DNA of 63,097 nucleotides, the filler included. It is 11 parts of 11 records of this genome, joined end to end, with 100 filler letters (N's around TTAATTAATTAA, not from the genome) between each part and the next. Parts side by side here need not be neighbours in the genome. Positions count along the whole stretch, not along the records: positions 22,168 to 28,845 come from SRR9670534_1216; 10 more parts are not named here. The stretch is one strand, 5' to 3'. Position 1 is the stretch's first letter, and the number at the start of each line of letters is the position of its first letter. The translations under genes were made by a program, and so were the position numbers. This document shows positions 9,408 to 48,092 of the stretch, piece after piece. The notes under the pieces were generated by a model. That model searched no databases and was not told the DNA's origin. It saw only the letters and a list, made by a program, of their open reading frames with translations.

Positions 9408-12400
9408 TTATTTCATTCTTGACTTAACATCACTGCATATAGGGCAAGAAACCTCTTCACTTGCGACATACTCAGAAAAAAAAGAATCTGCTCTATCATG
9501 ATCACTAAAATACACCCTTAAACATTGATCATGAAGGGCATGCTTGCATCCAAACACATAAAATGGGGTATCATCGTGGGCATTTATGGAAGAATGGCAG
9601 GAAGAGCACTCTTCGTCAGCACTAATGAAAGCAGCACATGAATTCTGACATTTCAGCATTCGTTCAAACAGATGTGTTTGGTCATTATCAAGAATCTTTT
9701 TACAATCCTCAATTATGGACAATTGTGACCTATGTTCTTGTAAAATTCGGATCAAAGCTGATTTCAAGCCTGGAATTACCATCTTTTTGGGAATGGCGGA
9801 AATGAGTTTTATGGGTTCAATCTTTAAACCAGGAGTGTGGAGGAGGATGTGCAGAAATTCCGCAGATTTTACACTGTATTCTAGGAGATCACTCCATAAC
9901 TCATCATCATCTTCATGATTTTGACAAAATTCAATGGCAATTTTAATATCTTTCTGCTCTTTCAAAATAATTTCTAATGCAAACTTTGCATTACCCATTT
10001 TATCCGCCAAAAATACCTTTCCTTCTGTTATGCTTCTTTGTTTGCAGATATCATACGCCTTTTCCATGTTATAATCTGAAGCAGTTTTTACGAACTGTAG
10101 CAAAAACTTCTTATTAAATTCAGCAGCTAGTTCGACGATTGTGTTTTGGTGTATACTAATTTGTTCCTTCATTTCTGGATAACTTTTCCAAATGAGGATA
10201 AAATACCTTAGCAACAACTGCTTATTTCTTTGAATTTGTGGTATAACGATTCTAGGCTCAAATTCTTTATGTGAGCAGAAAAGATTAAGAGCTCGACCTT
10301 CATCAACATGAACCAATTGGTTACAAAGACCATTTCTGACTATGGTATATAAATTGTACTTTTCAATGAGGTCGAAAACGCCCGAATGTTTGACATCTAA
10401 ATAGTGTTTTAAGGCTTCATCGTATTTAGACATTCTTGCATAAAGTTCAGCCATGCACTGCTTAAGCTGGCAATTTTCTTCAGCGCCTTTATGAATGTAT
10501 AATTTTTGACGTAGCGTTTCGGCAATTATTTGAACATCGTATATGTTCTTAGGCCATGTTTTAACCAATTGCACAAATATTTCATAGCGTTTTTGCTTCA
10601 AAAAGTAATCCAAAATGTATTCGTATAAACTTTTGTCAAATACGCATGGTGGTGATGTTGGAATGTACTTGTACAGGTTCTAAAATGCTCATCACATGAT
10701 CAAAAGATTAGATATTTTACTAAATAGTAGGAAAAGCTTGCCTCGAGTTGCTTATTATTTATGAAGGTCACAATGGAGCTCTTCCAAATCTTCTGACTAT
10801 TTTCACTTTGTATTCCTATAGCATGAACCAGCAAATCAGCAGCTTTTTCAAAATTAAATTCCTTTTTACATAAATGTTGAATGTATGTCAGGACAATCCC
10901 CTAAAAATCCCCACACTTAAGTACGTTAAACGAACGGGTCAGGCTTTGAAAGTCTGTTATACGATTTAATAATCTAAGATCGTATTCAAAGCTTTAATAG
11001 ATTTAAATTTTAAAATTTAAGTTTTAACTTGAATTTTAAAATTGAAAATTTTGATGGGTAATATTGAGATTTAAAATGTTAAAATTAATATTTAGTTGAT
11101 CAAGTAGTGAAGATGAAAACATACATCGACGGTAAACTCTCTCAAAGTTTTCTCATACTTCCTAGCAAATTCCAAGGCCTCATCAAATCTGACATTTTCA
11201 ATCAACCAAGCAACCCGTTCATCATTGTTCCTTAATCTGGATCCGATTAGAACTCTTGGCGTAACAATAAATCTAATCAATTCACTTTTCAGATATTCCA
11301 ACCTGAGATCGTTTGGATTTACGTAGATCGGAATATTTTCATCTTCCATTGGTGGCTTCAAGACGTTCAATGGAATGACATTATTAACTATTTCATCATA
11401 TTTTATCCCATGGGTAAACTTTATCAGTCTAACATGAACACTCCAATCTTGATTTCCTCTAGGCGATTTTCTGATGTTACTATAATCATCAATTCTAAAA
11501 TTCTCTTCACCATCCTCTGGAGTAGTAACCAAAATAAAACTACCGCTCATTGGTCCCATGCTACAGATAAAAAAGGGTAAAGTACTACTTCCTATTCTGT
11601 ATCCAGCCTTCTTTGGGGAACCATCAGATGCACCCCTCTCTGAAACTGTATAATCTGTATTAGCAGTGCCACCCTGTTCTCTATCTCTTATCTCAAAATT
11701 CTAAAAATAACCTTCATAATTACCAATAATAATAATAATTAGTAGTGACTAATAATCATTATTATATTAATAAAAATAGCAATAACAATAATTATTAAAA
11801 ACTATGCTTTATTAACCTCAATGGAATTAGCCCAGCCAATGGAAAACTTCTCAGAACTTTGCCATAAAATGGTTGCTCGAAATAAATCAGCTCTGAAGGT
11901 ATGACTTTTTCGATGCTTGAAGAATACTTCCCTGGCATTTATATCATATACAATTACATAATTATCATTTGCCCAAGCAATGTAATTGTTATGCCAAGTT
12001 ATGCTTCTGATAAAACCTTCACCTTCATGTAGGACATGTTGCTTCCAACGACGAAACAACATTTCTTCAAATAAAATCAGTTTTTCTCCACCACAGACAT
12101 ATTTTCTATCTTTCTGGAAGTTTGGTGCCAATGCAACACTCTTAACTGGCCGGTCCAAGCTATGCTTACGAAAAACATGATGGTCAATACGTGGTAGATC
12201 GTGAATTAAAACCGTTCCATCATCAGAACAAGAAATGGCAAAATCTTCCATAGAATCAACAGCAATGCTATTTACAGTGATGTTGTGGCCTTCAAGCTTC
12301 AAATGGGTAACGTTTCCTAGGTGTTTCAAAGATAAAGGATCAAAATACTTATAATTCTCTTACTTTATAAAGTAACTTACAAAATTTCTTACCTTCATGA

Positions 12401-12540
12401 TCCAGCACATGAAGTGTACCTGTGTGTGTGCCTAAAATCAAAAATTTGTCTGTTGCAGCTAAGCAACTAGCTGATTCATATTTCAGAACGTCAGCAGCTT
12501 TTTCTAAAGTGTAAAATCGCAAAACGGGTTCCTCTTCCAT
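9408..12540 (-). CDS. VPS41: Vacuolar protein sorting 41 (HOPS subunit), 5 exons
   Basis: N-terminal EEPVLRF, LGTHTGTLHVLDHEGN and WD-like repeats (SCSDDGTV, HEGEGFI), clathrin-like repeat (AIEFCQNHEDDDELWSDL) and C-terminal RING-H2 (CSSC...FGCKHALHDQC...CPIC). Exons join in frame. Confidence 0.93.
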
Positions 12541-12754: not shown

Positions 12755-14770
12755 TCAAAAATGATTGCTTTTAACGATGTTCCAAACTTGGCTGGCTAAA
12801 CCATGCATGCTAAGCCATACATCCTCATTAAATTTGGTAAAAAACGCTCTGCCATCAGCATCTTCTAGCAGCTCAAACACAACGAATAATTCATAACAGT
12901 GCCCGAATGCTCCCATTGCTTTCACATTGTTTCGATAAGCTGTCAGCGAAGATACAGTGGAAGTACAAGTATTACTTGAGCTACTAATCTTCTTTTTTGG
13001 TAAAGTTAAATCCATGACTCGATATCCTCGGTCATCTTCGACCCATATTTCATAGGCAAAAACAGTTCTACCAAAGCGCTTCATAACTCTTTGCCATTCA
13101 TGATCACCAAAGAGTTTTATGCAGGTACCCACAAATTCTGAAAATTTGTTGCAAATATTACCGGCTAAACTCGCTGGAGAAGGTGTGTAGCAAAAATCGT
13201 TATTTCTATCGATATACAGAAGGTGGGCAAGTTTTAAGTAAGAACTCAAAAAGGGTTTGCTTCTATGAAAATTTTCAGGAACAATAGCGCCAAGGGTAAG
13301 ATTTCTTTGGCACTTCACAAAAATATAATCAATAACATCATCTAAAACAGGACGAATGCTTGCAATTATTCGGTTCCAGTATGCTTCAGAAGTTAATGGT
13401 TTAACACTGTACACATTTCGAAGTACTTTTAGTAATTTGACTCGTAACTGGTATAAGAGGAAGACGTTTTTTGGTTTCGATATTTCTGGTGACAAATCTT
13501 CACAGATACTACGTATAATATTATTTTCATTATCGGACATCCTGACATTTTGTAAAATCATCTTTGCATTAAAACGAATTTTTTCAATAACTAGCTTACT
13601 TTTCGTTTCATCTAACTGTTCATCTTCGTTGTAAGTCTCAAAATACTCAAAAAAATCTCGTAAATACCAGATGCATTTTTCAAATCGGTGAGGTTGCACA
13701 ATGCAAACTGAAACGCCCTCGTAAAGCGGTAGAATTGAGACATGAAAAGGAGTCAAAAGTTCTGTTAGATTTCCACTCAAAAATATAGTCAAATGCCTCT
13801 TTGCATTTCGAAACAAAACATCTGTATCTGTAGATTCTATGTAATTATACACGGTATCGGTATAACTACGTGAGCGTTTTCCAGATATACTTGGTGGTAT
13901 TGGAGATTCTGAAGCTGCTGAATAAAAGTCTTCAGAATCTTCAGAGTCTTCATTGCCACTATTATCAAAAACATCTTCATCTAATACACACTCTCTTCTG
14001 GAGAATACCAAATGTAGAAGAAATAGCTTTCTAACATCATTTGGAGATAGATTTCCAGTACCATGTAGTAACTGTTCTTTGGTAAAAATATAAATAGCAC
14101 TAACATCTTTGTCGTGGATGTACTGTGAAATATCACGAATCAAAAGTTCCATAACCGTTTTGACTTGACTGCTAACCAAAAGAGGTTCAATGCATCGCAG
14201 CTTTAATAAACGAATATCACTACTATTACTGCAAAAGTTTTCATCTTCATTATCGTTGTTGTTGTTGTTGTTCTTATTATTCTTCTTTTTAGAAGTGATA
14301 TTGCAAAGTTCTTCACAAATTTTTGCAAGTAGCAGTTTTGTTTCGATATTTCCATTAACCAAACAAGTCTCAACACAAAAACCAAACACGTTTGAGCAAA
14401 ATAGGCATTTAATCATATTCATAAACTCAAGACAAAGGAAATCAAAGTCTTTAGGTACTAAAAAAATAACTAAATATGATTGTCCAATATAATGGAAGAA
14501 AAATGATCCTTCTTCCCCCAAAGAAACTTCTTCATACGGCATTTTCATGGCGTCCTTCATAAAAATATTAGATAGATATAACGTTGAAAATAACTGACTA
14601 ACAATATCTCTACAAAGCCTTTTTTCCAAATTACGGGACTTCGGACATTGTTCACCTTTGGTCAGTAATAATTCGTTCTCCATCGCAGATTTTCGTAATA
14701 AAGTGTCAGCATTTTCATCAACAAAATAAAAATGTAGTGTACATTCCCGAAATATGAATACACCAAACAT
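12755..14770 (-). CDS. HPS1: Hermansky-Pudlak syndrome 1 protein homologue (BLOC-3 subunit), single exon
   Basis: 671-aa ORF with HPS1-like segments DYIFVKCQRNLTL, LAHLLYIDR, YEIWVEDDRG and CYELF in the expected order; N-terminal longin-like start. Confidence 0.75.
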   Translation of the reverse strand: MFGVFIFRECTLHFYFVDENADTLLRKSAMENELLLTKGEQCPKSRNLEKRLCRDIVSQLFSTLYLSNIFMKDAMKMPYEEVSLGEEGSFFFHYIGQSYLVIFLVPKDFDFLCLEFMNMIKCLFCSNVFGFCVETCLVNGNIETKLLLAKICEELCNITSKKKNNKNNNNNNDNEDENFCSNSSDIRLLKLRCIEPLLVSSQVKTVMELLIRDISQYIHDKDVSAIYIFTKEQLLHGTGNLSPNDVRKLFLLHLVFSRRECVLDEDVFDNSGNEDSEDSEDFYSAASESPIPPSISGKRSRSYTDTVYNYIESTDTDVLFRNAKRHLTIFLSGNLTELLTPFHVSILPLYEGVSVCIVQPHRFEKCIWYLRDFFEYFETYNEDEQLDETKSKLVIEKIRFNAKMILQNVRMSDNENNIIRSICEDLSPEISKPKNVFLLYQLRVKLLKVLRNVYSVKPLTSEAYWNRIIASIRPVLDDVIDYIFVKCQRNLTLGAIVPENFHRSKPFLSSYLKLAHLLYIDRNNDFCYTPSPASLAGNICNKFSEFVGTCIKLFGDHEWQRVMKRFGRTVFAYEIWVEDDRGYRVMDLTLPKKKISSSSNTCTSTVSSLTAYRNNVKAMGAFGHCYELFVVFELLEDADGRAFFTKFNEDVWLSMHGLASQVWNIVKSNHF

Positions 14771-19679: not shown

Positions 19680-19859
19680 GTTATGGGAATAGCATTCCTA
19701 GATACCTTTGAAGAAATTTTGGGGAAGAATAAATTTCAATACAACGACAGAAAAGCCTGGACTTCTTTCTGGAATGCAGTGACAGGAACAATGCTAGATG
19801 GCTATCAAGATGTAAACAGTGAATATGTTAGAAAGCTACACGTGGATCGCACCATGTAA
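19680..19859 (+). CDS. Globin gene A, last exon (G and H helices)
   Basis: After acceptor AATTAG: VMGIAFLDTFEEILGKNKFQYNDRKAWTSFWNAVTGTMLDGY...*. Phase-0 start fits the G7.0 intron; AW in helix H. Not in the ORF track. Confidence 0.8.
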   Translation, partial: VMGIAFLDTFEEILGKNKFQYNDRKAWTSFWNAVTGTMLDGYQDVNSEYVRKLHVDRTM

Positions 19860-21071
19860 AATTTACGTTTTGTATGTTGCTAACAATGAATGAGTGAATG
19901 ACGTAGAAACCACGCCCTAGTAATAACAGATGTCCCTATTGTTAGTGTATTTTATAGTTTGTCGGTAATAATCCTCTTTTCCACTAACAATGTCATTATT
20001 AATATAATACCTATGGTAGTCTACTATTAGTAGATTTATGCCGCTGATAAGACTGTTTTCTTCATCATAGTTCTGGCAGAGTAGATTTAATTTTTTTACA
20101 TCCTGTACAACTAAACCATATAGAATTTATGTGCTATGGTCAGTTCCATTTTGGAATTTTCAAACCGTTGTATAGGTAAAAACGGATTTAATAATAATGG
20201 AACATAATTTTTAGTAACGTCTACAACTATATTTACAAGCTTCAAATAACGTGAATAATACAACAATACATGTTTTTTTTCTAGAAGTTGACGTATCAAG
20301 AATAAAGCTGTCACTTTAGTCATGTACCTATTTTATTGGCTATTTTATTTCTATAGAATAGTATTCTAAGAATACTATCGTTACGATACAATTGACATTT
20401 ATCATGCCAATAAAAATTGGGATAGTTTGAACTCAGCTGCGCATTTGTTATTTGATTGAAAAAGAAAACAAATGCAAAACTTTAGTCAACCGTGTCAATC
20501 TAACATGAAAAGAATTGCGATATGCATTATTGAATCAAAATGCAACTATTGGTAACCAGCTATCCTATATAGCATACCCTTGCCCACTGTATAAAGGTAT
20601 ATTAATTTATTCAGGCTTTCGCTGCTGCAGGCACCAAAACATTATCAACCATGAAAAAAAGCAAGTGGCAAATCGTCAGGTAAATACGATTCAAATGCTA
20701 TACTACTATGTATTGATTATTAAAAATAGGAAGGAAGTTTTCACAAGAGGGTCTTCAAAATGTATTTGTTTGTTTGTGGAAATAAAGATGATTAGCTTGG
20801 TTTGGAAGCTCTATTGTCAGTGTGATACACAATAATGAACATCTACAAAAGAGTGGCCCGTGTAAACAACAATGATGGTGTTTATAAAATGAAAAGTTCC
20901 TTCCTATAAGGTTATTATTACGAGATAGGTTGATGTGTTTATCCGACAATAATAGTTATTGTTGGAAGATAGCCATCTGGGCTTGCTGTCACAATATATT
21001 TATTATAATAAATTTATAAATTTATCTTTTTATTATGACGACATTTTGAAAATATTATTAATATTCACAAT

Positions 21072-21226
21072 ATGGAAAATCGCATAACTCGCCGTAGAGG
21101 GTCAATTGCAGAATATAAATTATCAGCTGGTGGACAAATCGTTGCATCTGCCGAAGAAATTGCATTGGTACAGGGTACCTGGAAATACCTGGATAATCAA
21201 CAACATTCAGTTTTCCTATTCATGAA
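21072..21226 (+). CDS. Globin gene B, first exon (A and B helices)
   Basis: MENRITRRRGSIAEYKLSAGGQIVASAEEIALVQGTWKYLDNQQHSVFLFM, then a phase-2 GTAAGT donor matching the canonical B12.2 intron; LVQxTW helix A signature. Confidence 0.75.
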
Positions 21227-22454
21227 GTAAGTATAAATACTTCTCTATTTATTAGGCTATTACTCAATTAACAATAATTTGCTTCTATTATTATAATAAT
21301 ATATTATTAACAATGAAACTGATATAATAATAAAACTAGTATACGATATTATTATAATAATAATATTAAATTTTCAGTATAGTTTCATTATAAAAACTAG
21401 GTAAATATTCGAAATTATTATTACTAATGGTAAGTGTTTCGTTTAATTATAACTATGCTGACTGTCAGGTAACAAGGTACAGTACGCTGTATAATAAGGT
21501 TTCCATTGAAATCATTTTCAAGATCTTCATCAATTTACTGCATTGCTCTTGCAATGTAACGATGTTGTTACTATAGTATATTATTGGTGGTGGTACTTTA
21601 TTAATAATAACTACACTTTGTTATTATTAATTAATCATTAATAATGATAACAATAAGCAATTAACAAACCCCAATAAATGTAATGAATGAAGTGTTGCTA
21701 CGAAGTCCTTGTCTCTCTTTATTATCACAAATTTTGCTTGCACCTGAGGAAACTAAATTCCAGTGGTAGAATAATATGCCGTATTAAATACCTGTTGGTA
21801 TTTTTGGCATAGTCGTTTTGCTCATTATTGTTGTGTGTGACATGATTTATAACAGGGTTTTATAATATGATCTATTGTGATTGCTGAAAGGAATTCCAAC
21901 CTACTCACTTACTAATCCGTTCGCAATACCTAGGTAAGCACATTGGAATCATTGTTATGATGCAGTTTAGGCGGTCGCAAATTGACACTGCCGCTACCAA
22001 CAACAACACACAAAGTATAGTAGTTCGAACTAAAGATCTTTATCATTATTAATAATAATAATAATAANNNNNNNNNNNNNNNNNNNNNNNNNNNNNNNNN
22101 NNNNNNNNNNNTTAATTAATTAANNNNNNNNNNNNNNNNNNNNNNNNNNNNNNNNNNNNNNNNNNNNTAATATGCATATTATAATACATGTAATATCTAA
22201 CGGCTAATGTAGCAAAAATATTTATAATAAACCATTTTAAATTCGTCCAATCTTGTGACCTCGGCTTTTATTCTGATCGGCTAATAGGCGCGGAAATACG
22301 GCATGTATGTAGATGTAGGTACGTTACGTAAGATACATACTACAGTAGCTATAGCGGTGTTTGAAACGCGTGTTACACCACTGGTTTAGTGTAATTTACC
22401 CATATCAAATTTTGCATTTGTTACCTATTAATAATAAAAATTACAAATATTTAG

Positions 22455-24877
<2,423 letters not shown>

Positions 24878-25069
24878 CCCGTTTTGTGCACTTTCTTTTA
24901 AATTTCTTCATATATAACCATTGATATCACGTTTATTTATATCTTTCTATCTCATATTGTCACTCTCATTGGATTTTTTTTATCATTAATTTGAATTTTT
25001 GCATAATTATTAATCAATTTTGGCATTATTAATGATTACTTTTTATCGTAGAAGAAAGAGCTTTAAAAG

Positions 25070-27922
25070 ATGATTAACGGATTCTTTCCCACCATTTTGG
25101 ATGAAAATTTGGATTCTTCAACTGCAATTCAGATAAATCAGTTTGATTTAAATCAGTTAGTCCAACAATTACCACCGGATCAAGCTCAATTATTCCAAAT
25201 TCACCAATTTTTGCCGATAATTCCTGAAAAAAGGACCGTTTCCATCGAAGAAATGACAGAAAAGGTTGCAGATGAAGTTGATGCCGAAATTGCTCAGGAA
25301 AGTTTTGAATCTGATTTATCACCAGAACCATTTGATGAAGAAAAGGCCTGGAGTCATGCCGATTTGATTGGGATTTTCAGTAAATTTGTTCTTTGGTTAA
25401 AGCAATATAAAGGTGCAAATTTGGAAAAAACCGTTATCGCACCTCTTTTAACAACTATTTACAAGTTTATTTGGTTGAAATTGGAGAGTTATGATTTGGA
25501 GAAGAAAGGTAGGATTATCAAGTGTAAATATTACGTAATCAGTAGGGCAATTCCATGACTTTTCCTAAACTCAGCTTAAAATGAGAAATGTATGTAAAAT
25601 TGTATTGAAAAAAAGATGTCACTGCATTATGCATATGCCATATGTTTTTGAAAATTTGAAATAAGTCATCAACATCAATAATTTTTTGAACATTTTGTAG
25701 CTTATCTATCTGACAAGTACGCTAGCTATAGTATGTTAATAGATGTCGCCATCTTGGGGAAAAACTTGATGGAATTGCCTTCTTAATTTGACTTTGTAGT
25801 TGTTGAATTCAAGTTAAAAGGCCATCATGTCCTCTCAAATGCCAATTTGCTCCACAACAACACCCTTTTCATACATGATGAAAACTTATTTAAAGCCAGC
25901 ACCCTACCTCATTCCCTATGGGTCCATATTGAAGATTTTGTAGATGAAAAAAATTCAGATTTATTTGTTTATCTTCTCAAAAAGTTAAACATTGATATAG
26001 TTGAGGACTCAACTTTTCACCAAAATCACATGGATTCATCTGCAAAGGCACCATCAGATGGTAAAATTGATGGTCTTCTTGAACCCATTTCACCAAATGA
26101 CAATGATAAAATTTCATTTTTTAACACCATTTCAAATTCACTTCCTTTGTTAGTAACTGAACATAAACACTCAATTTTTATTTACAATGTTTGCAATATG
26201 CTAAGTAATTTAAACAAAGTCAAATTTGCTCCCAGTTTGGAGTATTTAACTTTGTCTTTGGATGATTCTTCAATACTTCTGTACCCTTTGTCTGGAGAAG
26301 ATAGTGCAAAGTTTTTGTATGGACATAGTGGAGGAGTTTATGATTTTTGTTATCCAAAAAATAGTGACTTGTTTTTGTCATGTAGTTTTGACAAAAGTGT
26401 TTGTTTATGGAGTTCTTCTTATAAAGGCCAAATTGCTAAATATGAGGGGCATTCTGGCCCTGTTTGGTGTTTAACGGTGTAGTCATTATTATTGATTTGG
26501 AGTAAATTTGAAAATTTGGCTTATTTGATAAAATATGAGTTTAAAATATTTTAAATATATTGCATATGTAATTTTGAAACAATTGGGGGCAAGGGACACA
26601 GGGTCCTTTTTCAGGGTAAGGACTCCTGGAGGGTTTTGAATTTATGGGGGCAAAGGGGCAAAATTCCTTTTGTAGGGTATGGACTCCATGGAGACTATGG
26701 AGACTTTTGTAGGGTATGGACTATGGAGACTATTGGAGGGTAGTTAATAATAATAATATTATTTATTTTTCTGGGGACCCCCATAGAAAACTTCCTTTGT
26801 ATACTGTAGATGGCGCTAGTTGTTTTGATCATCAAAATTTGATGACATCATCCCCTTAAATAGCGCTATCTATTTTTCATTCCTATCAAACTGAAAATGA
26901 AAAATCGGCATTGGTTTTATTAATCATTAATAATGGCGCCATCTGTATTTGTTTCCCAATCAAATTAACTCAGGTTAGTTATGCTTTCAATTAGAATCCT
27001 TTGTTATTATCCAATCATATACATGGACAGGTTTTGTTAATGGCGCCATCTGTATTTGACCCCCTCCATCTGTATTTGTCCCCCAATCAAATTAACTCAG
27101 GATTGTTATGTTTTCAATTTGTACCATTCGTTAGCATGCAATCATTTTATGTATAGGTTTTGATACTGGCGCCATCTGTTTTTGACCCCCAATCAGATTT
27201 AACTCAGGATAGCTATGCTTTTATTTGGAATCCTTCACTATTATTACCCAATCATACATATATGACTACACTGTGTCTCTTAAAGTAATACCAGAGTTAA
27301 CCTTTACTTTGCATCTGGGTCTCATGATTGCACAGCCAAGCTTTGGTCTTATGACAAGACATTTCCTTTGAGAAGCTTTGTTCATCCTGAAGATGTTGAC
27401 TGCCTCAAATTTCATCCAAATTGCAACTACTTGGCCACTGGAAGTTCTGACAATTTCTGTAGACTCTGGGCACTCAGTGATGGCAAAGCAGTCAGAGAAT
27501 ATGAAAATCTACCAAGTGGTGCTTTAGCTCTTGACTTTTCCTATGATGGAAATTTGCTTGGTGTTGGTTGTTACAATGGAGAAGTCATTGTCATTGATCT
27601 CAGAGCTGACTCCATTTTGTACCAATGGACACCATCATTTGAAGAAATTGGAAAAATGCCATCAAATCATCTGTTTTTCATGCCAAATTCTCTGCAACTT
27701 ATTTCATCAAGTTCTTATGGAAAGTTTATCAGAGAACATTCACTGTATGGAAGTTTTACCAATAGTAATAACAACAATGATTTGATGGGAAATTTCTTTC
27801 ATGCACCAACTACTTTTGGAGAATGTACTGACATTGAATGTGGAATAAACAGTCAAATTTTAGATATTTGTAATGATGATGCTAATACCATAAATGTAGC
27901 AGTTCTGAAGAAGTTATCTTAG
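25070..27922 (+). CDS. TAF5/TAF5L-like WD40 protein; exons about 25070-25508, 25701-25730, 25800-26476, 27285-27922
   Basis: WD40 repeats GHSGGVY, LSCSFDKSVCLW, YEGHSGPVW, FASGSHDCTAKLW and DVDCLKFHPNCNYLATGSSD..CRLW typical of TAF5/TAF5L; divergent N-terminal domain. Confidence 0.75.
26584..26741. repeat. G-rich degenerate tandem repeat in the TAF5-like intron
   Basis: Recurring GGGGCAA, TTTTGTAGGGTATGGACT and ATGGAGACT units. Confidence 0.65.
26931..27262. repeat. Three tandem ~107-126 bp units with core TGGCGCCATCTGT(A/T)TTTG..CCCAATCA..TTAACTCAGG
   Basis: Cores start at about 26934, 27041 and 27167. Confidence 0.85.
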
Positions 27923-28015
27923 GATTTTTTCCATTTATTCTTTGATGAGTTTTTTTGCATGAGTTGTCTTTTAATATTATTCCTTGAGATTATTAATAAT
28001 TTTTAGGAAATAATC

Positions 28016-28797
28016 ATGGAAGGTTCTGGACAACTTGGTGCATCAATTGATGCATTAACATGTTTACCACCAGTTAACTTTGTCTCTGAAAGAACAAATA
28101 GAATGTTGGAGGATTTTTGGCCTGATGTTAAGAATGAAGTGGATCATTGTACAGTTAGTGATTTGAGGAAGCAAAAAGAAATTCCATTGGCTAGAATTAA
28201 GAAGATTATGAAGATGGATGACAATGTCAAGGTAAGGTTCTCATAATGCGAAAAAAAACATTGATTTTGCTCATAATTTTCAATTTTCGAAACAAAAACT
28301 AGATGGCGCCATTGTTGGGAAATGTTTTGCAATATTAATAATAGTAACATTGAAAAACAATCAGAAAACATAGCACTAGATGGCGCCATCTTTGGGAAAC
28401 TTTGCAATATTAAATAATAATAGTTTCATATTGTAGTAATTATATATTATTAAGATGATAAGCCAAGAAACCCCAGTCCTGTTTGCAAAAGCTTGTGAAA
28501 TCTTCATAAGAGAATTAACGTTGAAGGCTTGGGTTCATGCAGAGGAAAGCAAAAGAAAAACCTTGCAAAAGAATGATATTGCCTTAGCATTAGCTAAAAA
28601 TGACCAATTTGACTTTTTGATTGACATTGTACCCAGGGAAGAAATTACTACTAGTAGTAGTAGCAAACCCTCTTCTCATGGTAAAAATGAACCCACTGGC
28701 ATGGGACATCAGGGAATGTCCAAGAATGACCAACATCTTTTGCAGTATGTCCAGTTGGCACAACAAACTTCTTTGGATGTTCAGAAAATACACAATT
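28016..28797 (+). CDS. NFYC: Nuclear transcription factor Y subunit C, 3' end truncated
   Basis: Histone-fold [68 protein letters not shown]; intron 28232-28455. Confidence 0.93.
28299..28424. repeat. Two direct copies of CTAGATGGCGCCAT..TTGGGAAA..TTTGCAATATTAA in the NFYC intron
   Basis: Copies at about 28299-28345 and 28376-28424. Confidence 0.8.
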
Positions 28798-30094
28798 GTA
28801 ATTATTTTATATTATTAATCATTTATCATAAATATATTTTAATATNNNNNNNNNNNNNNNNNNNNNNNNNNNNNNNNNNNNNNNNNNNNTTAATTAATTA
28901 ANNNNNNNNNNNNNNNNNNNNNNNNNNNNNNNNNNNNNNNNNNNNAATCCGTACTTCGTGCAGAATGTGCTAATACCGCCAATTCACCCATACTTTACCT
29001 ACTATACTGTGTAATGATTACACAGTAATCCTATTATGCATGGTAAATGCTTCATATCATATCTTACAATTTAATCTGAGGTTTTATTAAAACATCTGTT
29101 GCACCTTTACAACACTACCATAATAAGTTGATAAAAATGCCGTAGGTAAGATGAGAGACCAATGTTGGGTAAATATGCACAGAAGTAGTGAACATCTAAA
29201 GGTCAGATGCTGCTACTCTTTTTACACATATGATCAAATACGGCCGTTTTCTGATATTTCCAAACGGCGGCAAAAATTTGTTTCTTATTTGTAACCTTCA
29301 ACAGATGTCGTCGAACGGCGGTAAAATTATATGTACCATTTTTTGATATATCACCAATGGACGGACACTCACTTACCTACCAGACATTAACTTAATTAAT
29401 TTGGTACTACCAAATTGGTACCTAGGCTTTTAAGAAGCTTTCAGAAAATAATTAATTTATTTGATGGATGTAAGTTCATGCTTAGATAAATTTTGAGGTG
29501 CATGCTTGCTTTGCACGTGCTGTTTTCTGATAACCAAAAAAGACATGATATTCATATGTTTATTATTATGTCTTGCTGCCTGTATATAACAAGCATTTAT
29601 ATGTTTCGCAGAACATTTTATTCAACCTTCTTGACATCAACTGCAGTCTGCAGATGGTTGATGAAATGAGATTTATGAAGATATTTCTTTATTAAGATTA
29701 TAACTAAAAAGGGGTTTTTTGTTTGAAGATAATTTAATAGTATTTTTCAAATTGCTAGGATTAATATTGACAATATTATATTGTTTGAATTATTACAGGG
29801 GCTTTGGGTTTTCAGTTTCAATTATTCGTGGGAAATTTTTCAGGCGTTAATTAACTTAATTAACAGGACAAATCCATTTTAGTGGTGTCTGAAAATGACT
29901 CTTAATCTTACTAATTATTAAAAATCCCTCGATAAAAGGAAAGGAAAGCTTTTAAAAGGTTTGTCAAAACGTATTAGTGTCTAATTGTGTGATTATTACT
30001 TGTGTAACATCATCACCATAAATATAACCGTCCGCGGTTTGGCAATATCTCCAAATGGCGAGCTCATTGCCAAATGACACATGGGTGATGTTTA

Positions 30095-30261
30095 TATTAT
30101 TTTTTGGCGACATCTTTGTGGGGAAATAACTTTTGGACGATGTTTCAAAAGTTATTTCCCCCACAAAGATGTCGCCAAAAACAATATTAACATCTCCAAG
30201 TGACACATGAGAAATGTATATATTGTTTTTGGCGACATCTTTGTGGGGAAAATAACTTTTG
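30095..30261. repeat. Inverted plus direct ~41-bp repeat array (foldback/MITE-like)
   Basis: TTTTTGGCGACATCTTTGTGGGGAAATAACTTTTG at about 30095-30135, its reverse complement at 30146-30186, and a direct copy at 30221-30261. Confidence 0.85.
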
Positions 30262-30762
30262 AACGGTGTTATTAATACAATAATAATCACTGTTCCTGTG
30301 TGACGTCATCAGTAGTGATTTAATTTGCCATCATGATGACCTACCTCCCAATAAGTTTGAAGAGAAGTAATTAAGAAATACCATTGTTTGCTTACCTGTA
30401 TATGCAATTACCTGTGTAACTCCACCTGTTAGACTAGGTAAGACACCAGATGTATTTTCCTGATAGAGGTAGTTAATAATACAAAGGTAAAGTGAGACAT
30501 GAAGCAAGGAAGAGGAGGGCACCTATTCTTTACACACAATGGGCGAGTTTAGACTGCTCCCATTTCCATCTGACGCGCATACTCTCCTGTAGTATTTAAG
30601 TAGCTCGCCATGCATTTTATAACATCCAGATAAGTAGTAAAGTATACGCATGCTACTTGTTGATGCATTGCAGCTGACGCACTCCTTTTCTGGCTACTAC
30701 TTTTCACCCCAACTGAAACAACTACTGTAACGAGTACTTTATCCTTGTTATATTGTCAAATT

Positions 30763-40978: not shown

Positions 40979-41929
40979 TTATGCTTCTGTAAGATCATCG
41001 TTATAATACAAATGAATGGCAGAAATATGCTGTTCATTATCAATTCTTAGATTGTAAAATTCTTCGTCTTCGTCCATGACTCCATTTTCTTCAAGTGTCT
41101 TATCCATTTGCAGGCATTCCCCTTCATTTTTCCAAGTATAACTTGCTGCATGTGCATTATAAAACAAATACCTATCCAGTATTTCGTTTATTGTTTCTTC
41201 TGAACAAACCTGAAAATTTAGTAAAGATCAATTTTTTGTAAGATTTTGATCATTTTAAAATTTTATTATTAATTTTCTAATATTTAGCAATATTTATTTA
41301 TAAAATCATAATGATTACCTCCAATGTTTGCTCCTGTGATGTAAGTGTGTTGACAATACGTATTAATCGTGTTTTCTTGCTCAAAGTACCAATGCAGTAC
41401 CCATCATCTTTCCACCAAGGTCTGCCAAAATCATTGATCCAGTCTGAACATGGAAATGCGGGTGGAACGTGGACAAATCGACCAGTTGGTGAATATGGTA
41501 TCAAGCAATTGGTTACTGGATCAACATATCTTCGCAGCTAAAAGAATAGACTATGGTGCAAAGAACTTCAAATTTATAAATTATTATAATAAACTAAAAC
41601 TATTAATAATGTAAAATCATACGTTACAATTATTAATATAACCAAACAGTAGTACTACACTAATAAACCAAATAACGACCACAAGAATAAACTTGCATAC
41701 AAAACATTACATCTTTTGTCTTTGGATCAAACCAATGACTGATGTCTTGCCCAGCTGCTGCTACTATTGGCTTCAGTAAAACATCACCATTAAATTTTTC
41801 TGCCAAAGGTGTTAAATCATAAACTTTGCCAAGAAAACTGACCCATAAATCATTTAAACTATTGTGAACGGAGACTTCATTAGGTGTATAAAATCTTTGG
41901 ATTTTCTTTGGAACAATTGGTGTGTTCAT
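40979..41929 (-). CDS. CYB5D1: Cytochrome b5 domain-containing protein 1, 3 exons
   Basis: [60 protein letters not shown] and the C-terminal [11 protein letters not shown]. Confidence 0.93.
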
Positions 41930-42454
41930 TTCGCTAAAATAACAATTGTTTGCCAAAATCGAAATTAAAGATAGTTTATTTTAGATAGACCTATAATCTA
42001 TAAAGTATTAATATTCTAGACTTTAAAGAACCAATGATACGACGTTACGTTAATTTCAGCTATAATTTACAATACGCCTATTGAAGAAGAATTGCGCTTA
42101 TTCAATGCACTTGCTATAATGTCTGATATGAATGTGAATGACGCCATCTTGAATTTCAAAGTGTGTGCATAGCAACAACATAGAACACTGATACATATGA
42201 ATAGACTAACGATAGTATCGGATACCAATCGTTCATGCAACCTACTATTATTAATGATAAGCTAATTCTAAATTAAACCTCCAGCACCTAAAACACCATT
42301 AAGAAACGTTTTCACTCAAATTTTTTAGGACACTTCAGTAAAGATAATTTTTATTACTTCTTCAATATTATGAAATAGATAATAGTTGCACTAATTAGAT
42401 TTAAATGGTATTAGATTTCAAAAGTATATGCTACATTAATACAATAAATATTTT

Positions 42455-44466
42455 TCAGCTTTCCTCCAACAGTACTTTTCTCTTTTTCACAGGTAAATCT
42501 GATACGGTCCCAGGTTTTGAGTTTGCTTTCAAATTTCTTTCCTTCTTTCTGTCAGCGCTTAATATAGTTTTAACTTCTTTTTTAGCATTGTAGACATGCT
42601 TTGGAACGTGCCTATGATTAGCAATCTTCTTCACGTCAGGATGGAAAGCATACTTTTGCTTTAGTTTGTCATTGTAATTTGCAGCATCTTTTTCACGTTT
42701 AGACAGCTAAATATTTTATCAAACATATTATCAATTAAATTAGAACATTTAAAGTAATAACAAATTCCTTACTAAACCAAGTTTTTCTGAAGAATAGGCC
42801 TTCCATAGTCTCAAATTCATTTCATCAGAGCCAGAAACTATAAACTTATTATCAAGTGACCATTTGACGCAAAAGACACGTTGCATTCTTTTGGTGTGGT
42901 AAACGTCTCTACTATGACCATTATGTATTTCGAAAATTCTTAATGTTTTGTCATAACTACCACTAACAAATTCTTTCCCCGTTGGTGAGAAATCAATATC
43001 CATAACTAAAGCAACTAGTGGTCATAGCTATCGATATCGACGAAAAGTTTAAATATGAAAAAAAAAATACCTGCACCAACATGATCACTATGCATCATTA
43101 AGGGGTTTCTCAAGTGTCTCATGTCAAAAGTATAAAGACTAAACGTAAGAACGTTTAAAATATTACACACATTACAAATTTTAGACTACAATACATTTAT
43201 TTAATATATTATAGATAACCTAACTACGGATAGTATTCACTGGGTACAATGTGGTCAATACTTATAGTCTTCATTGGCAGCTGTAAAGATGAAAGGTTCC
43301 CTAGGATTCCAGGCCACGGAATTAGATCTAAGCTCCAATAACAATCGTCTAATAGGTACAGGTTTTCTGGTATCTATGAAAATCAAACTACGATCGCTAC
43401 AAGTTGAACACAAAAGATCGTTCTAAAATAATACAATTGTTTTTAACATGAAAAAAGATGTCTCTGATATATCGAACAATAATTCGGAGAATTTCCTCAT
43501 ACCTCAGCTGGATTAAAGTTAACTTTGCTATGAGTGTCATGACCCCAAGTATAACTTCGGACAGGATCACACCTTTCAGTATCCCAAATATCTACAGTTT
43601 CCCCACAAGTAGCAAAACTGTTTATTTCATAAGCACAATCCAAGCCATACAACACAGACTAAAATGCAAACTTTTTCTTGTTAGTACTGTATCCCTCATA
43701 GCATGGCAAGAGCATGAAAAATTTACCTTGGATAAAATACTTTTCGCAGGTACCTCTGTATTATCAAAAGACCAGAACTTTATACATTTATCATCACCAA
43801 CTGATATAAATTGTTTTGATTGGCTAGTGATACCAAGACCTCTTATCCAGCCTGAATGAGCGTTTCGATAAATGTTTTCACAAGAGTGCAAAGCTAAATT
43901 CCATATTCTAATCTAAAGTTTTGCACATACATTACTAACCAATATATTTTACATCATCAAGCACTGTAAAACCTAGATACTATTGTATAATGATAGATGC
44001 ATACTTCGCCATCGTATGAACCTGATAAAAGCATTCGAAGATTTTTACGATCTTTTGTAAGACAGCTAACGCCATCCGTATGCCCATCCAAAGAACAGAT
44101 AAATGGTTTTGCAAACACCCTACTCAACTTTGTTGCGTTTAAAGCCCTAATGTATTCCCTATTTGATTCAAAAGGATGATTGATGGGATCCAAGTTTCTC
44201 GGTACTGCATATCATATGATAAAGAAAAAGTATTAGGTATTATTATTAATTAACAATAACTATTATTATCATTGGATTACTGTACACATGTTGCAATGCT
44301 TACATTATAACTTATGAACTTCGTGCTACGTTATAGAATAACTACGATAAGTATTTATTAATTACATTCTGTCACCCCTGTGAATGTCAAACTTCGTTTG
44401 TCTGGTAAAATTATCCGGATTACGTGTCAATACTTTAATCTTGACATCATTATTGATACTGGACAT
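42455..44466 (-). CDS. DCAF13: DDB1- and CUL4-associated factor 13 (Sof1/WDSOF1), multi-exon
   Basis: KIKVLTRNPD, HPFE..REYIRALNATKL.RVFAKPF, WNP.EPF.FTAANEDY, DFSPTGKEFVSGSYDK, YHTKRMQ, SGSDEMNLRLWKA, IANHRHVPK. Confidence 0.96.
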
Positions 44467-44859
44467 GTCTAGAACGATATATTAATATCAGTAAAGAATA
44501 ACGCAGTTGCAATACTATTAAAGAAAGTTGCAGTTTAATTAAATAATCTTATAATAAAAAACGAGAAAAGACTTATTATTAAATCAAAACTTATTAAAAA
44601 CTCTCTACACAGTAAGATTAGATTCATAGTCACAGTATGTCGTATTGTAATCTAAATTAATAAATGTACGTAATTACAATATCATTTAATAAATAAGTAT
44701 GTAGTAAAGACGATAGTGAGACTATATGTATGTCTAGATTCTAAAAGATGTATTTATTGATTTTAAAAAGTATAACATAACAAAAAAACGCATTAATAAT
44801 AACAATTCAACAGTGTTAATTTTTCATCGCCACTCAAAGGATAATCCAAACCATTCGGC

Positions 44860-45683
44860 CTAGATATCATCCCCTTCGGTCAAAAGGTAATCCAGATCTT
44901 TCGGTCTCTGGCGTGAATACTGCTTGGCGGCAGGTTTCCTGGGAGCTCTGGCACTATTATAAGTAGTTGTGTTCAAGGAAGCACCATTAGTAGCTTTTGG
45001 CTTTGACGTCGGAACCTATGACAACAATATATTAATTGCATAATTATTACTATTGAATTATTATTAACAGCAATACTTTATTTCATATAAAATTTCGTAT
45101 GTTTAAATTTCTTAACTTATCACAATGTGACATAGCATACCTCGTTATTATTGTGATAATCACCACTGGTCAAATAGACGTTCTCTGCACTTGTTGAAGA
45201 TGACTGCATTGGAGGTCCAACGGGTTCAATAGGTTTCCCTGAAGCTGGTTGTGTCTGAAGCCAAGTATTGACTTTATCATCTTTGTCAACTACCTTCGGC
45301 GCAGGATGAACAAGTGAATCTGGGATACTAACTTGAGTTCTTTCTGGTGAAGTGAAAGATTCTTTGCTAGAACTGTTAGTCATTTTGATCCCACCATATC
45401 TTCCCGGATTGTGGTCTCTTTCAAGAGTAGCCTTCTGCTCTTTCAACCATTGAAAGACATCATGTTTCAATGGTTTGCAGTTTCCAAAGACTTCTTGTAC
45501 CGTTAATTTCGGCTGGTTCTCTGCTTTCTTGACTATGTCATCCAATGTTTCGAAAAGAACCATTTCTTCTTCTGACTCATCAGATTTAACAGATTCTTCA
45601 TCAGATGATGTAGATGAAAACGCCTCTTCATCATTGTCAACTCTGTGTTCAAATTTAGGAGCAAGTTCTTCCTTTTGAGCCAT
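44860..45683 (-). CDS. Hypothetical protein with acidic, low-complexity N-terminus; 2 exons (45683-45141, 45015-44860)
   Basis: 190-aa ORF with a phase-0 GTATGC donor joining a CATAG acceptor and an in-frame terminal exon ending DYLLTEGDDI*. No family recognised. Confidence 0.6.
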
Positions 45684-46013
45684 ACTTGCCAAGTTTTGGT
45701 GAAACGTTTACACAATAAGGTCCTAAAAATAAATTCGTCAACTGTCGTATGTATGTACCTTTTATTGTAACAATCTTAGATTTTAGTAAACTTTATGCCA
45801 CGTAATCTGCGCATTACGTACGCATTATCAAAAAATAAAAATAGATATGCTCGTTGTGCAAATAATATTATAATAATACGTAGTACATATTACGTTGCCC
45901 GTTGTGTACACATTACGTAGTACGTAATACGTATCAGGGTACATAATATGTACCTAACATAAGCACGGTACATATTACGCACGCGCAAAAAAGCCTAAAA
46001 TCAACCAAAAACA

Positions 46014-48092
46014 TTACTTTGGCCACGATTGGTCAAGTACATTCCTATCAAAATTGAATTGTTCTCGATGACACTGCATAAAAGGCTGAGCTGTTAAAAT
46101 TGCCCATAACTCGGAAGAAAAACCAGGTGCCATTGGACTTATCATTACAATAAATTCCAACAAATATTGGTGCAATAATTTACTATGAGTTAAACTTTCC
46201 TTGCTAACTATCTTCTTGTTTCTGAAAGTCTGAAGATATCCTTGCAAAACGCGAATATTTGTATTTAATAAATGTGTTTTTTCGTAATAGGACGTAACAG
46301 ATTGCAAAGTAGTGTTACGCTTTTTCGTCAAAAAAGATTCGCATTTCTGCAATTCTTCAATATTTGGCAAGGACACACTTTTGCAATCTAGATCGATCAA
46401 CGTAGTTACCAAATTCCAAGTTCTTGACATAAATCTTTTCATACTAATGAATTCTAAAGTTGAAACAATAAATGAATGGTAATGAAATACAATATACCCA
46501 TACAGAGTCTGTAACAGACCTCTTTCGTTCCATTTTCTTGGATATTTAGGCGCAACGTCAGCCAACATACATAACCTTGTGACATCAACACCAAATTTAT
46601 TCATGATTTCTCCAGGGTCAACACCATTCTTCTTCGATTTGCTCATTTTATCCCAATAAACCTCAACATGTTCTTTTGTAGAAATTTCAACAAATTCTCC
46701 ATTCTCTTTTTCAAAAACCTCTGAAGAAATTAAAAATTTGCCACTGTGCTTGGTTTTATATGTTTTCCCCAAAATCATTCCTTGTACCATCAATCTGGTA
46801 AAAGGCTCAACACAATTAGCCATACCAATTTTATGCAAAAAATGATTGATAAACCTGGCATAAAAAAGGTGCATAATTGCATGTTCTTTGCCTCCAACAT
46901 ACAAATCAACTGGCATCAAATGGTTAGCTTTGTCCGAATCAAAAGCCATTTCTTTATTGTGAGCATCACAATATCTTAAAAAGTACCACGAGGAATCAAC
47001 AAATGTATCCATTGTATCTTGCTCTAAAGATGTTTTAGAACTTCCACATTTGGGGCATTCTTCCGCTGATGAGGAATGATTTATGGGTAATCTTGCATAT
47101 GGAATCGGTTGTGGACCACAAGAGCTGCAATGAACTATTGGGATTGGTGTTCCCCAAGTTCTTTGGCGAGAGATTAACCAATCTCTCAATGATTTTCCAG
47201 AATAACAAGCAATAACATTTTTTTCTCTTAATTTCTCCATTAAGTTATTAGAAACACCATTTCCAGAAATTTTTGGAAATTTTAAATTTTTCGCCACATG
47301 TAAGTTTAACAGATCATTTCCAGAACAAAGCTCGCCTTCTGAGTTCTCAAAAATATTAGACTGGACCACAATTGGCCAACTGATAGCTGGACGTAAAGGA
47401 TTATTTACACTAGCTTTTAACCGCTTAACTAAAAATTATTAATAACAATGTTTTGCACTAAATATTTATTAATACAAATATCATTACATATGTATCAAAT
47501 TGAACTATTGTAAATTACAATTTGTAATAGAGAAATTATCTATTATATTTAGCATCATAATAACTCGAGTGATCATGAGGTTGACATACTTCTGACTTTC
47601 TGTGGTTCTTCATCTTCTTTAGCCGTAACTTCAATTTCCATTTCTTCACTTCTAAATTTTCCTGTAATTAAATTACGTCATTTTCACCGTGTCTTACATT
47701 AATTCTTGTATATCTAGGAAGTGTTTTTCAGGAACAGCAACATGAGTTATATGGTTAAACTGTTGTTCATTTTCTAAGAATAAATATAACATATTTGGAG
47801 CACCAGAATTGTCTAACAAACATTTTCCTGCCTCATCATAAACATGGTATTGAAGCTCCAACTTTAATCCTAAGGTGTGACCAATCCAATTTCTCTGCAT
47901 TTGTTTTACTTCATTGCTAAAGTTTTTTAGGCCTTTTAAATTTTCTTGCAAATCCTTGGCAAGAGCTGTGGTTCTGACAAACCATTGTTTTAACCATTTT
48001 TTCTCAACTTTGGCACCAGATCTCCAAGAACAGCCACTTAGATCAATCTGCTCATCTGCTAGGACAGTTTTGTCAACTGGATCCCAATTTAC
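46014..48092 (-). CDS. LARS2: Mitochondrial leucyl-tRNA synthetase, 5' end truncated
   Basis: VNWDPVDKTVLADEQID..GCSWRSGAKVEK, MQRNWIG, LRDWLISRQR.WGTPIP, DTMDTFVDSSWYFLRY, GGKEHA, KMSKSKKNGVDP. Confidence 0.93.

Follow-up and report, generated by a model that had tools for sequence, protein, structure and literature searches.

Three head-to-tail genes on one contig piece

We examined three genes, kinesin-13 (KIF2), a TAF5L-like WD40 gene, and NF-YC, which lie head to tail in this order on the plus strand of a single contig piece, SRR9670534_1216 (22168-28845). The piece is part of a window of 63,097 bases, the whole stretch of DNA that was analyzed, in which 11 contig pieces are joined by N44-TTAATTAATTAA-N44 linkers; those bounding this piece lie at 22068-22167 and 28846-28945. 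Because one contig piece holds all three genes, their adjacency was not made by the joins. The window DNA is AT-rich (about 32-35% G+C), and its spliceosomal introns are short. A previous sequence-only reading had proposed that the three genes constitute an operon resolved by spliced-leader (SL) trans-splicing. Our results point tentatively to a shorter unit consisting of the TAF5L-like and NF-YC genes, with KIF2 separate. The three-gene arrangement on one strand and the stop-to-ATG distances of 192 and 93 nucleotides (nt) were borne out at every coordinate, and the gene labels (KIF2, TAF5-like, and NF-YC) were upheld by matches in Pfam, tblastn, and PDB searches. The gene models are as follows:

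22303-24877 (+), gene 1, kinesin-13 (KIF2A-like), 675 aa, based on Pfam, tblastn, and splice sites
Gene 1 exons (+): 22303-22318, 22455-23381, 23549-23858, 23920-24163, 24207-24386, 24477-24651, and 24702-24874; stop codon TAA at 24875-24877 (+)
25070-27922 (+), gene 2, TAF5L/TAF5-like WD40 protein, about 583 aa, based on Pfam WD40, PDB phmmer matches, and splice sites
Gene 2 exons (+): 25070-25508, 25800-26478, and 27286-27919; stop codon TAG at 27920-27922
26479-27285 (+), gene 2 intron 2
28016-28796 (+), gene 3, NF-YC histone-fold subunit, based on Pfam and PDB matches
Gene 3 exons (+): exon 1 at 28016-28231 and exon 2 from 28455 to at least 28796

The seven-exon model of gene 1 gave an open protein of 675 residues, with the kinesin motor (PF00225) spread over four exons and a KIF2A-like domain (PF22923) at the N terminus. 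The exons were covered by KIF2A of Pinctada and Echinococcus in tblastn, and the protein was ~50% identical to full-length KIF2A of molluscs, a nemertean, an annelid, a centipede, a hemichordate, and vertebrates. With its internal motor and KIF2A-like N-terminal domain, gene 1 is a predicted kinesin-13.

The best natural PDB match of gene 2 was TAF5L (7ktr_B, E values of 5.9e-32 and 5.6e-15), followed by TAF5 chains. Exon 2 was colinear with TAF5L residues 335-390 and exon 3 with residues 396-480, and the length of about 583 aa is in keeping with that of TAF5L (589 aa). The C-terminal WD40 propeller is thus predicted to be of the TAF5/TAF5L type. For exon 1 and the first 133 residues of exon 2, no Pfam family was found at E ≤ 10 except a chance HDOD match (E 0.21), and exon 1 (146 residues) had no PDB match. 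Because the NTD2 and LisH domains of TAF5 proteins were undetected in the N-terminal part by the Pfam and PDB searches, we refer to gene 2 as TAF5L-like and not as TAF5L.

Gene 3 matched PF00808 (E 5e-10) and PF00125, and the 12 best of its 15 PDB matches were NF-YC or the fungal homologue HapE (E 5e-27 to 3e-22). Judged from these matches, gene 3 is a predicted NF-YC, the 3' part of which is cut off by the piece end (28845). An exact 38-nt pattern of NF-YC exon 1 gave no match in metagenome contigs and none in genome contigs.

The two spacers differ in their acceptor sites

The two spacers contain the following elements:

24878-25069 (+), spacer 1 between KIF2 and gene 2, 192 nt, 48% T, 3 CpG, observed/expected ratio (o/e) 1.12
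24911-24917 (+), TATATAA (TATAWAW), the sole one in spacer 1; 0.23 expected in 192 nt
25025-25036 (+), 12-mer palindrome copy ATTATTAATGAT, ending 14 nt before AG 25050-25051
25038-25051 (+), acceptor-like site ACTTTTTATCGTAG (TTTTTATCGTAG) with its AG at 25050-25051, 18 nt before the gene 2 ATG
27923-28015 (+), spacer 2 between gene 2 and NF-YC, 93 nt, 53% T, no CpG
27989-28000 (+), 12-mer palindrome ATTATTAATAAT, ending 5 nt before AG 28005-28006 and containing AATAAT at 27995
27993-28006 (+), acceptor site TTAATAATTTTTAG (AATTTTTAG) with its AG at 28005-28006, unpaired, 9 nt before the NF-YC ATG

Splice sites were scored on both strands with donor and acceptor matrices built from 13 cis introns of the window. 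The NF-YC acceptor reached 8.87 bits, which placed it in the top 0.4% of 6316 AGs, and it outscored 11 of the 13 real cis acceptors in a leave-one-out comparison; no ATG lies between AG 28005-28006 and the NF-YC ATG. The gene 2 acceptor, by contrast, scored 3.72 bits (top 15% of AGs), a value that is typical of real cis acceptors and not rare. The acceptors that the sequence-only reading had placed before each downstream ATG are thus present, but only the one before NF-YC is unusually strong, and only at this second junction is the acceptor unlikely by chance. Two further claims stood as made. Both spacers are richer in sense-strand T (48% and 53%) than eight cis introns (37%), and the 93-nt spacer lacks a consensus donor: all six GTs in the spacers, including the two in spacer 2, scored below the median of the 6524 GTs in the window. 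Neither AATAAA nor ATTAAA was found in spacer 1 or spacer 2, and no TATAWAW was found in spacer 2. The TATATAA at 24911 is a possible core promoter element of gene 2.

The reading frame of gene 2 is shut upstream of its ATG by an in-frame TAA (25064-25066), and that of NF-YC is shut by the TAG of the acceptor AG 28005-28006 itself. Translation of both genes therefore begins at these ATGs, unless splicing brings in a coding exon from upstream. On inspection of the sequence, two cis joins between gene 2 and NF-YC were considered and rejected. If the weak GTAATG donor within exon 3 of gene 2 (27870) is joined to 28007, a TGA follows immediately; if the donor of exon 1 (25509) is joined to this position, NF-YC is read in the wrong frame. 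Because the plausible joins yield a stop or a frame shift, a fusion protein produced by cis-splicing is unlikely.

Taken by their elements, the two junctions do not look alike. The 93-nt junction looks operon-like, with a very strong unpaired acceptor, no donor, no TATA-like box, and no CpG. The 192-nt junction, with an ordinary acceptor, a TATAWAW, and CpG-normal flanks, is more reminiscent of a compact promoter region.

A CpG-free domain spans the second junction

The CpG content of the piece changes within gene 2, as listed below:

22168-25749, 3582 nt, 106 CpG, o/e 0.94
25750-28845, CpG-depleted domain reaching the piece end, 3096 nt, 13 CpG, o/e 0.15; GpC o/e 0.99; TpG+CpA o/e 1.35
KIF2 coding sequence, 2025 nt, 68 CpG, o/e 0.86; CGN in 17 of 35 Arg codons
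Gene 2 exon 1, 439 nt, 9 CpG, o/e 0.69
Gene 2 exons 2-3, 1313 nt, 1 CpG, o/e 0.03; TpG+CpA o/e 1.50
NF-YC exons, 558 nt, 1 CpG, o/e 0.05; CGN in 0 of 7 Arg codons

The switch from CpG-normal to CpG-free DNA is sharp and lies at ~25750, inside gene 2 and ~700 nt past its ATG. Beyond it, the largest CpG-free gap of the window (27170-28249, about 1078 nt) spans gene 2 exon 3, spacer 2, and NF-YC exon 1; it contains no CpG vs 32 expected at an o/e of 1 and 21 expected at the window mean. Another CpG-free gap, at 25747-26475 (728 nt), is the fourth largest in the window. In gene 2 exons 2-3 and the NF-YC exons, TpG+CpA rises to as much as 1.5 with GpC at about 1. Such a loss of CpG with raised TpG+CpA and normal GpC is the presumptive footprint of germline cytosine methylation.

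According to the Ciona study cited here (PMC3827831), methylation covers gene bodies almost completely and is absent from promoters and intergenic regions. The stretch reported to stay unmethylated around a promoter reaches from ~800 bp before the transcription start site (TSS) to 1 kb past it, even when the promoter has been placed in a methylated intron. By analogy with Ciona, CpGs should have survived near any active promoter within the 93-nt spacer, and none are left. If a Ciona-like genome is assumed, the domain edge, ~700 nt past the gene 2 ATG, lies where a TSS near 25000 would put it. The CpG landscape would therefore fit a promoter near spacer 1 and none in spacer 2.

The CpG o/e over the 300 nt upstream of each ATG was compared among the junctions of the window:

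KIF2, first gene on its piece, flank o/e 2.1
Gene 2, spacer 192 nt, flank o/e 1.17
NF-YC, spacer 93 nt, flank o/e 0.0
Unknown gene after a class I aminoacyl-tRNA synthetase (aaRS), spacer about 330 nt, flank o/e 2.09 (17 CpG, repeated TACGTA motifs)
DCAF13, spacer about 394 nt, flank o/e 1.54
Cytochrome-b5 gene, spacer about 525 nt, flank o/e 1.45
Vps41, spacer about 215 nt, flank o/e 0.63

The three longer tandem junctions (aaRS-unknown, DCAF13, and cytochrome-b5) serve as internal controls, and their upstream flanks are all CpG-rich. They belong to a cluster at 41663-48092 (−) of four co-oriented genes, namely the class I aaRS, an unknown two-exon gene, DCAF13/Sof1, and a cytochrome-b5-domain gene. 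The ATGs on the minus strand lie at 45683 for the unknown gene, 44466 for DCAF13/Sof1 (an AG 2 nt before), and 41929 for the cytochrome-b5 gene (an AG 4 nt before). Because each upstream flank is CpG-rich, the downstream genes of this cluster probably have their own promoters. A second CpG-free stretch, at 47688-48638, covers the 5' part of the aaRS gene (probably leucyl-tRNA synthetase), and the 3' exon of the same gene is CpG-normal and adjoins a CpG-rich flank.

A candidate dicistron and its alternatives

From the CpG footprint, we infer that gene 2 and NF-YC may be co-transcribed. The explanation that we tentatively put forward, while holding it at somewhat below even odds, is a TAF5L-like/NF-YC dicistron that is transcribed from a promoter near spacer 1 and resolved at AG 28005-28006, probably by trans-splicing, with KIF2 as a separate gene. 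The two genes would then form one transcription unit that begins in or close to spacer 1, with KIF2 as an unmethylated unit of its own. Splicing at the unpaired AG 28005-28006 would generate the NF-YC mRNA 5' end, most likely through the attachment of a spliced leader, and the gene-specific part of the 5' untranslated region (UTR) would then be 9 nt long. The TAF5L-like mRNA would end within the 84 nt preceding the same AG, and the junction would be of the Ciona or SL1 type, with little or no intercistronic DNA. The spliced leader itself is hypothetical in this organism.

Several results weigh against this explanation. No SL RNA or small nuclear RNA was found in the 63-kb window with Rfam at E ≤ 1, a search that covered curated SL families, and the SL1 and SL2 Rfam models had no match in the window. 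Relatives of gene 2 in metagenome contigs had NF-YC or KIF2 alongside at 0 of 21 loci, although these relatives are distant (32-70% identity over parts) and carry little weight either way. Among objectively chosen open reading frame (ORF) starts, a top-5% acceptor within 60 nt was present at 3 of 21, compared with 13.7% of random windows (p 0.56). In a small list of 10 starts that we curated by homology or long ORFs, 5 had such an acceptor (p 0.007); the evidence that acceptors regularly precede start codons across the window is equivocal. A good GTAAAT donor lies upstream of the acceptor located 4 nt before the cytochrome-b5 ATG, and acceptors before ATGs may therefore in part belong to ordinary 5'-UTR introns. 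Strong donor-like sites are also present in gene 2 intron 2, namely GTAAGG at 26616 and GTATGG at 26677 and 26714 (8.8 and 7.95 bits, top 0.5-1.1% of GTs), and these donors could pair in cis with AG 28005-28006. In addition, the CpG argument rests on the analogy with Ciona and presumes methylation in an organism of unplaced lineage.

Three other explanations were weighed against the dicistron. An unlikely one, though it deserves serious consideration, is that the three are independent, tightly packed genes whose promoters overlap the 3' ends of their upstream neighbors, with chance or unused acceptors and a CpG-free state that has another cause. This would agree with the lack of an SL RNA gene among the Rfam matches in the 63 kb, with the TATA-like box in spacer 1, and with the acceptor statistics, in that 15% of AGs in this AT-rich DNA score like the gene 2 site, a top-5% acceptor falls in 13.7% of random 60-nt windows, and the ORF-start test was unenriched (3/21). 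It would, however, require a 3' UTR with its poly(A) site, plus a core promoter and a 5' UTR, to fit into 93 nt. Against it also stand an NF-YC acceptor in the top 0.4%, 9 nt from the ATG, and the absence of CpG over about 1078 nt, which sets this junction apart from every longer junction of the window. We consider it improbable that NF-YC is instead transcribed from a promoter in gene 2 intron 2, within repeats carrying a GGCGCC motif, such that the genes overlap and no operon exists. In detail, a noncoding exon would be cis-spliced from 26616, 26677, or 26714 to AG 28005-28006, with the final gene 2 exon passed over. Intron 2 does contain the best donor-like sites ahead of this AG, and the motif AGATGGCGCCATCT holds 7 of the 13 CpGs surviving in the depleted domain, with the related AAGATGGCG in the CpG-rich flank of the cytochrome-b5 gene. 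Yet the Ciona pattern predicts ~1 kb of unmethylated DNA downstream of such a promoter, and the following ~1078 nt are without CpG. CpGs kept solely inside the motif fit repeat copies or binding sites equally well, and copies of the motif are also found in the first introns of gene 2 and gene 3.

The proposal of the sequence-only reading, a single operon running from a KIF2 promoter with both downstream genes trans-spliced, has in our view only a slim chance of being correct. All three genes share one strand, with spacers of 192 and 93 nt that are both under published operon thresholds; both spacers are T-rich and lack donors and AATAAA, and each AG is preceded by a copy of the 12-mer palindrome, at a distance of 14 and 5 nt, respectively. 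The 93-nt junction does look operon-like. The 192-nt junction looks more promoter-like, with the TATA-like box at 24911, an ordinary gene 2 acceptor (top 15%), and a CpG switch: KIF2 (0.86) and gene 2 exon 1 (0.69) are CpG-normal, but the remainder of gene 2 and NF-YC is CpG-free, and the switch at ~25750 falls as a TSS near 25000 would place it under the Ciona pattern. On this indirect evidence, the proposed operon is supported in part, at its second junction more than at its first.

Comparison with known operons

SL-resolved operons are described in nematodes, tunicates, flatworms, rotifers, chaetognaths, and others in the cited accounts (PMC12460157, PMC1488885, PMC12582326), and unpaired acceptors are given there as the substrate of SL trans-splicing (PMC1488885). 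The working threshold for an operon is <250 bp in the chaetognath report (PMC12460157) and ≤300 bp in the flatworm report (PMC12582326); by a same-strand criterion of ≤250-300 bp drawn from these reports, the distances of 192 and 93 nt both qualify. As in the flatworm and chaetognath operons so described, the genes here share a strand, are separated by no more than 250-300 bp, and have an acceptor ahead of each downstream gene, but the calls in those reports require SL-bearing reads at the downstream gene (PMC12582326, PMC12460157), and the evidence here comes from sequence. The chaetognath Paraspadella is reported to be without gene-body methylation (PMC12460157), unlike the present locus, which looks body-methylated.

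The likeness to Ciona intestinalis operons, as these are described, is in the shared strand, the near absence of spacer beyond the upstream 3' UTR, and the acceptor just before the ATG. Satou et al. (2006) reported 16 of 18 Ciona operons without a canonical AATAAA before the junction (PMC1488885). In operons of this type, the poly(A) site of the upstream gene adjoins the downstream acceptor, and AATAAA is mostly lacking within 40 nt. The locus here shares this lack of AATAAA and an apparent black-or-white gene-body CpG methylation (PMC3827831). Unlike the Ciona operons, it is described here from DNA sequence. In Caenorhabditis elegans, spacers are given as about 100 nt for the SL2 type and none for the SL1 type (PMC1488885, PMC12582326), and the 93-nt spacer is near this typical nematode intercistronic length; it is also U-rich in sense, with an acceptor close to the ATG. 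However, nematode SL1-type operons are described as having AATAAA upstream (PMC1488885), which is absent here, and the strong CpG-depletion mosaic of this locus is unlike C. elegans.

Lineage of the organism

No near-identical protein was found in the searched collections. In a quick KIF2 tree of 21 rows, chosen by us among the 120 hits listed, the query had a branch of 1.98 vs a median of 0.15, and its placement is unreliable; a branch with 95% support in the Shimodaira-Hasegawa-like approximate likelihood ratio test (SH-aLRT) parts it from the lophotrochozoans. A mir-29 hairpin (Rfam RF00074) was detected at 51524-51605 (+) with 46.9 bits vs a gathering score of 46.7 (E 5.8e-7), the sole Rfam match at gathering score in the window. 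The mir-29 family is bilaterian, and its presence would be consistent with a bilaterian animal. Rfam also gave three weak sub-threshold microRNA or small nucleolar RNA matches near 30100-30300, and no tRNA was found in the window. It would be something of a long shot if the organism were a fast-evolving, unplaced animal that combines mosaic gene-body methylation with SL operons in a phylum for which trans-splicing has not been described.

Repeated motifs

The 12-mer palindrome ATTATTAATAAT is frequent throughout the window, with 123 matches at ≤1 mismatch vs 8.6 expected from shuffles, for example at 259, 3033, 7492, 16119, 22045, 25025, 27989, 32374, 40894, and 48272. As a poly(A) signal it was rejected: it occurred within 250 nt of 7 of 18 stops vs 17.7% of random positions, an association that is too weak (p 0.03 against a lenient null that includes coding DNA). 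Possible identities of the 12-mer are an (ATT)n/(AAT)n junction and a signal for 3' ends.

A second palindromic motif, (T)AGATGGCGCCATCT, is confined to the introns of gene 2 and gene 3, in which four exact copies were found vs 0.03 expected:

26809-27183 (no strand), intronic repeats with the motif (T)AGATGGCGCCATCT, closely preceded by the strong donor-like sites at 26616, 26677, and 26714; further copies at 25747, 28303, and 28380
Exact form ATGGCGCCAT at 26933, 27040, 28303, and 28380
Variants at 25747, 26814, and 27170

The copy of the related AAGATGGCG mentioned above lies at about 42140 on the minus strand. The motif (T)AGATGGCGCCATCT, which accounts for more than half of the CpGs surviving in the depleted domain, could be a candidate repeat terminus or protected binding site.

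Other tandem genes in the window

All seven adjacent gene pairs that could be defined in the window are co-oriented (p ~0.008 under random orientation, 0.5^7), a value to be read with the shortness of the pieces and our own choice of the gene list. Apart from the aaRS cluster, a single-exon ORF of 670 residues at 12761-14770 (−) was labeled HPS1-like (BLOC-3) with a very high score from language-model features only; it had no Pfam match and no homologue in a word-based sequence search. This ORF ends about 215 nt upstream of the start codon of Vps41 (9411-12540, −), on the same strand. Vps41 has T-rich AGs 24 and 55 nt before its ATG, and its 5' flank is CpG-poor (o/e 0.63). The HPS1-like/Vps41 arrangement, two tandem genes of endolysosomal trafficking, is another candidate co-transcribed pair. 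In addition, ORF fragments at 19680-19859 (+) and 21039-21230 (+) resemble, by eye only, the C-terminal and N-terminal parts of globin, respectively, and look like two putative tandem globin genes.

Implications

SL-resolved operons are already a known kind, and the TAF5L-like/NF-YC junction would be at most one more case. The value of the locus lies mainly in the CpG-footprint argument, which yields sharp predictions and may tell apart two junctions that the previous reading had treated alike. In genomes with methylation-driven CpG loss, a CpG-retaining gap between tandem genes would predict the presence of a promoter from sequence only. If the organism does combine mosaic gene-body methylation with SL operons, the CpG footprint would serve as an RNA-free map of polycistrons, in which no unmethylated gap lies between cistrons and an unmethylated edge marks the first gene alone. 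If NF-YC is expressed from the TAF5L-like transcript, two components of the transcription machinery would be under one promoter. The genome would then join the patchy list of operon-bearing animals, the origin of which is described as debated (PMC12460157), and if its phylum is one without described trans-splicing, it would represent a further independent origin of operons.

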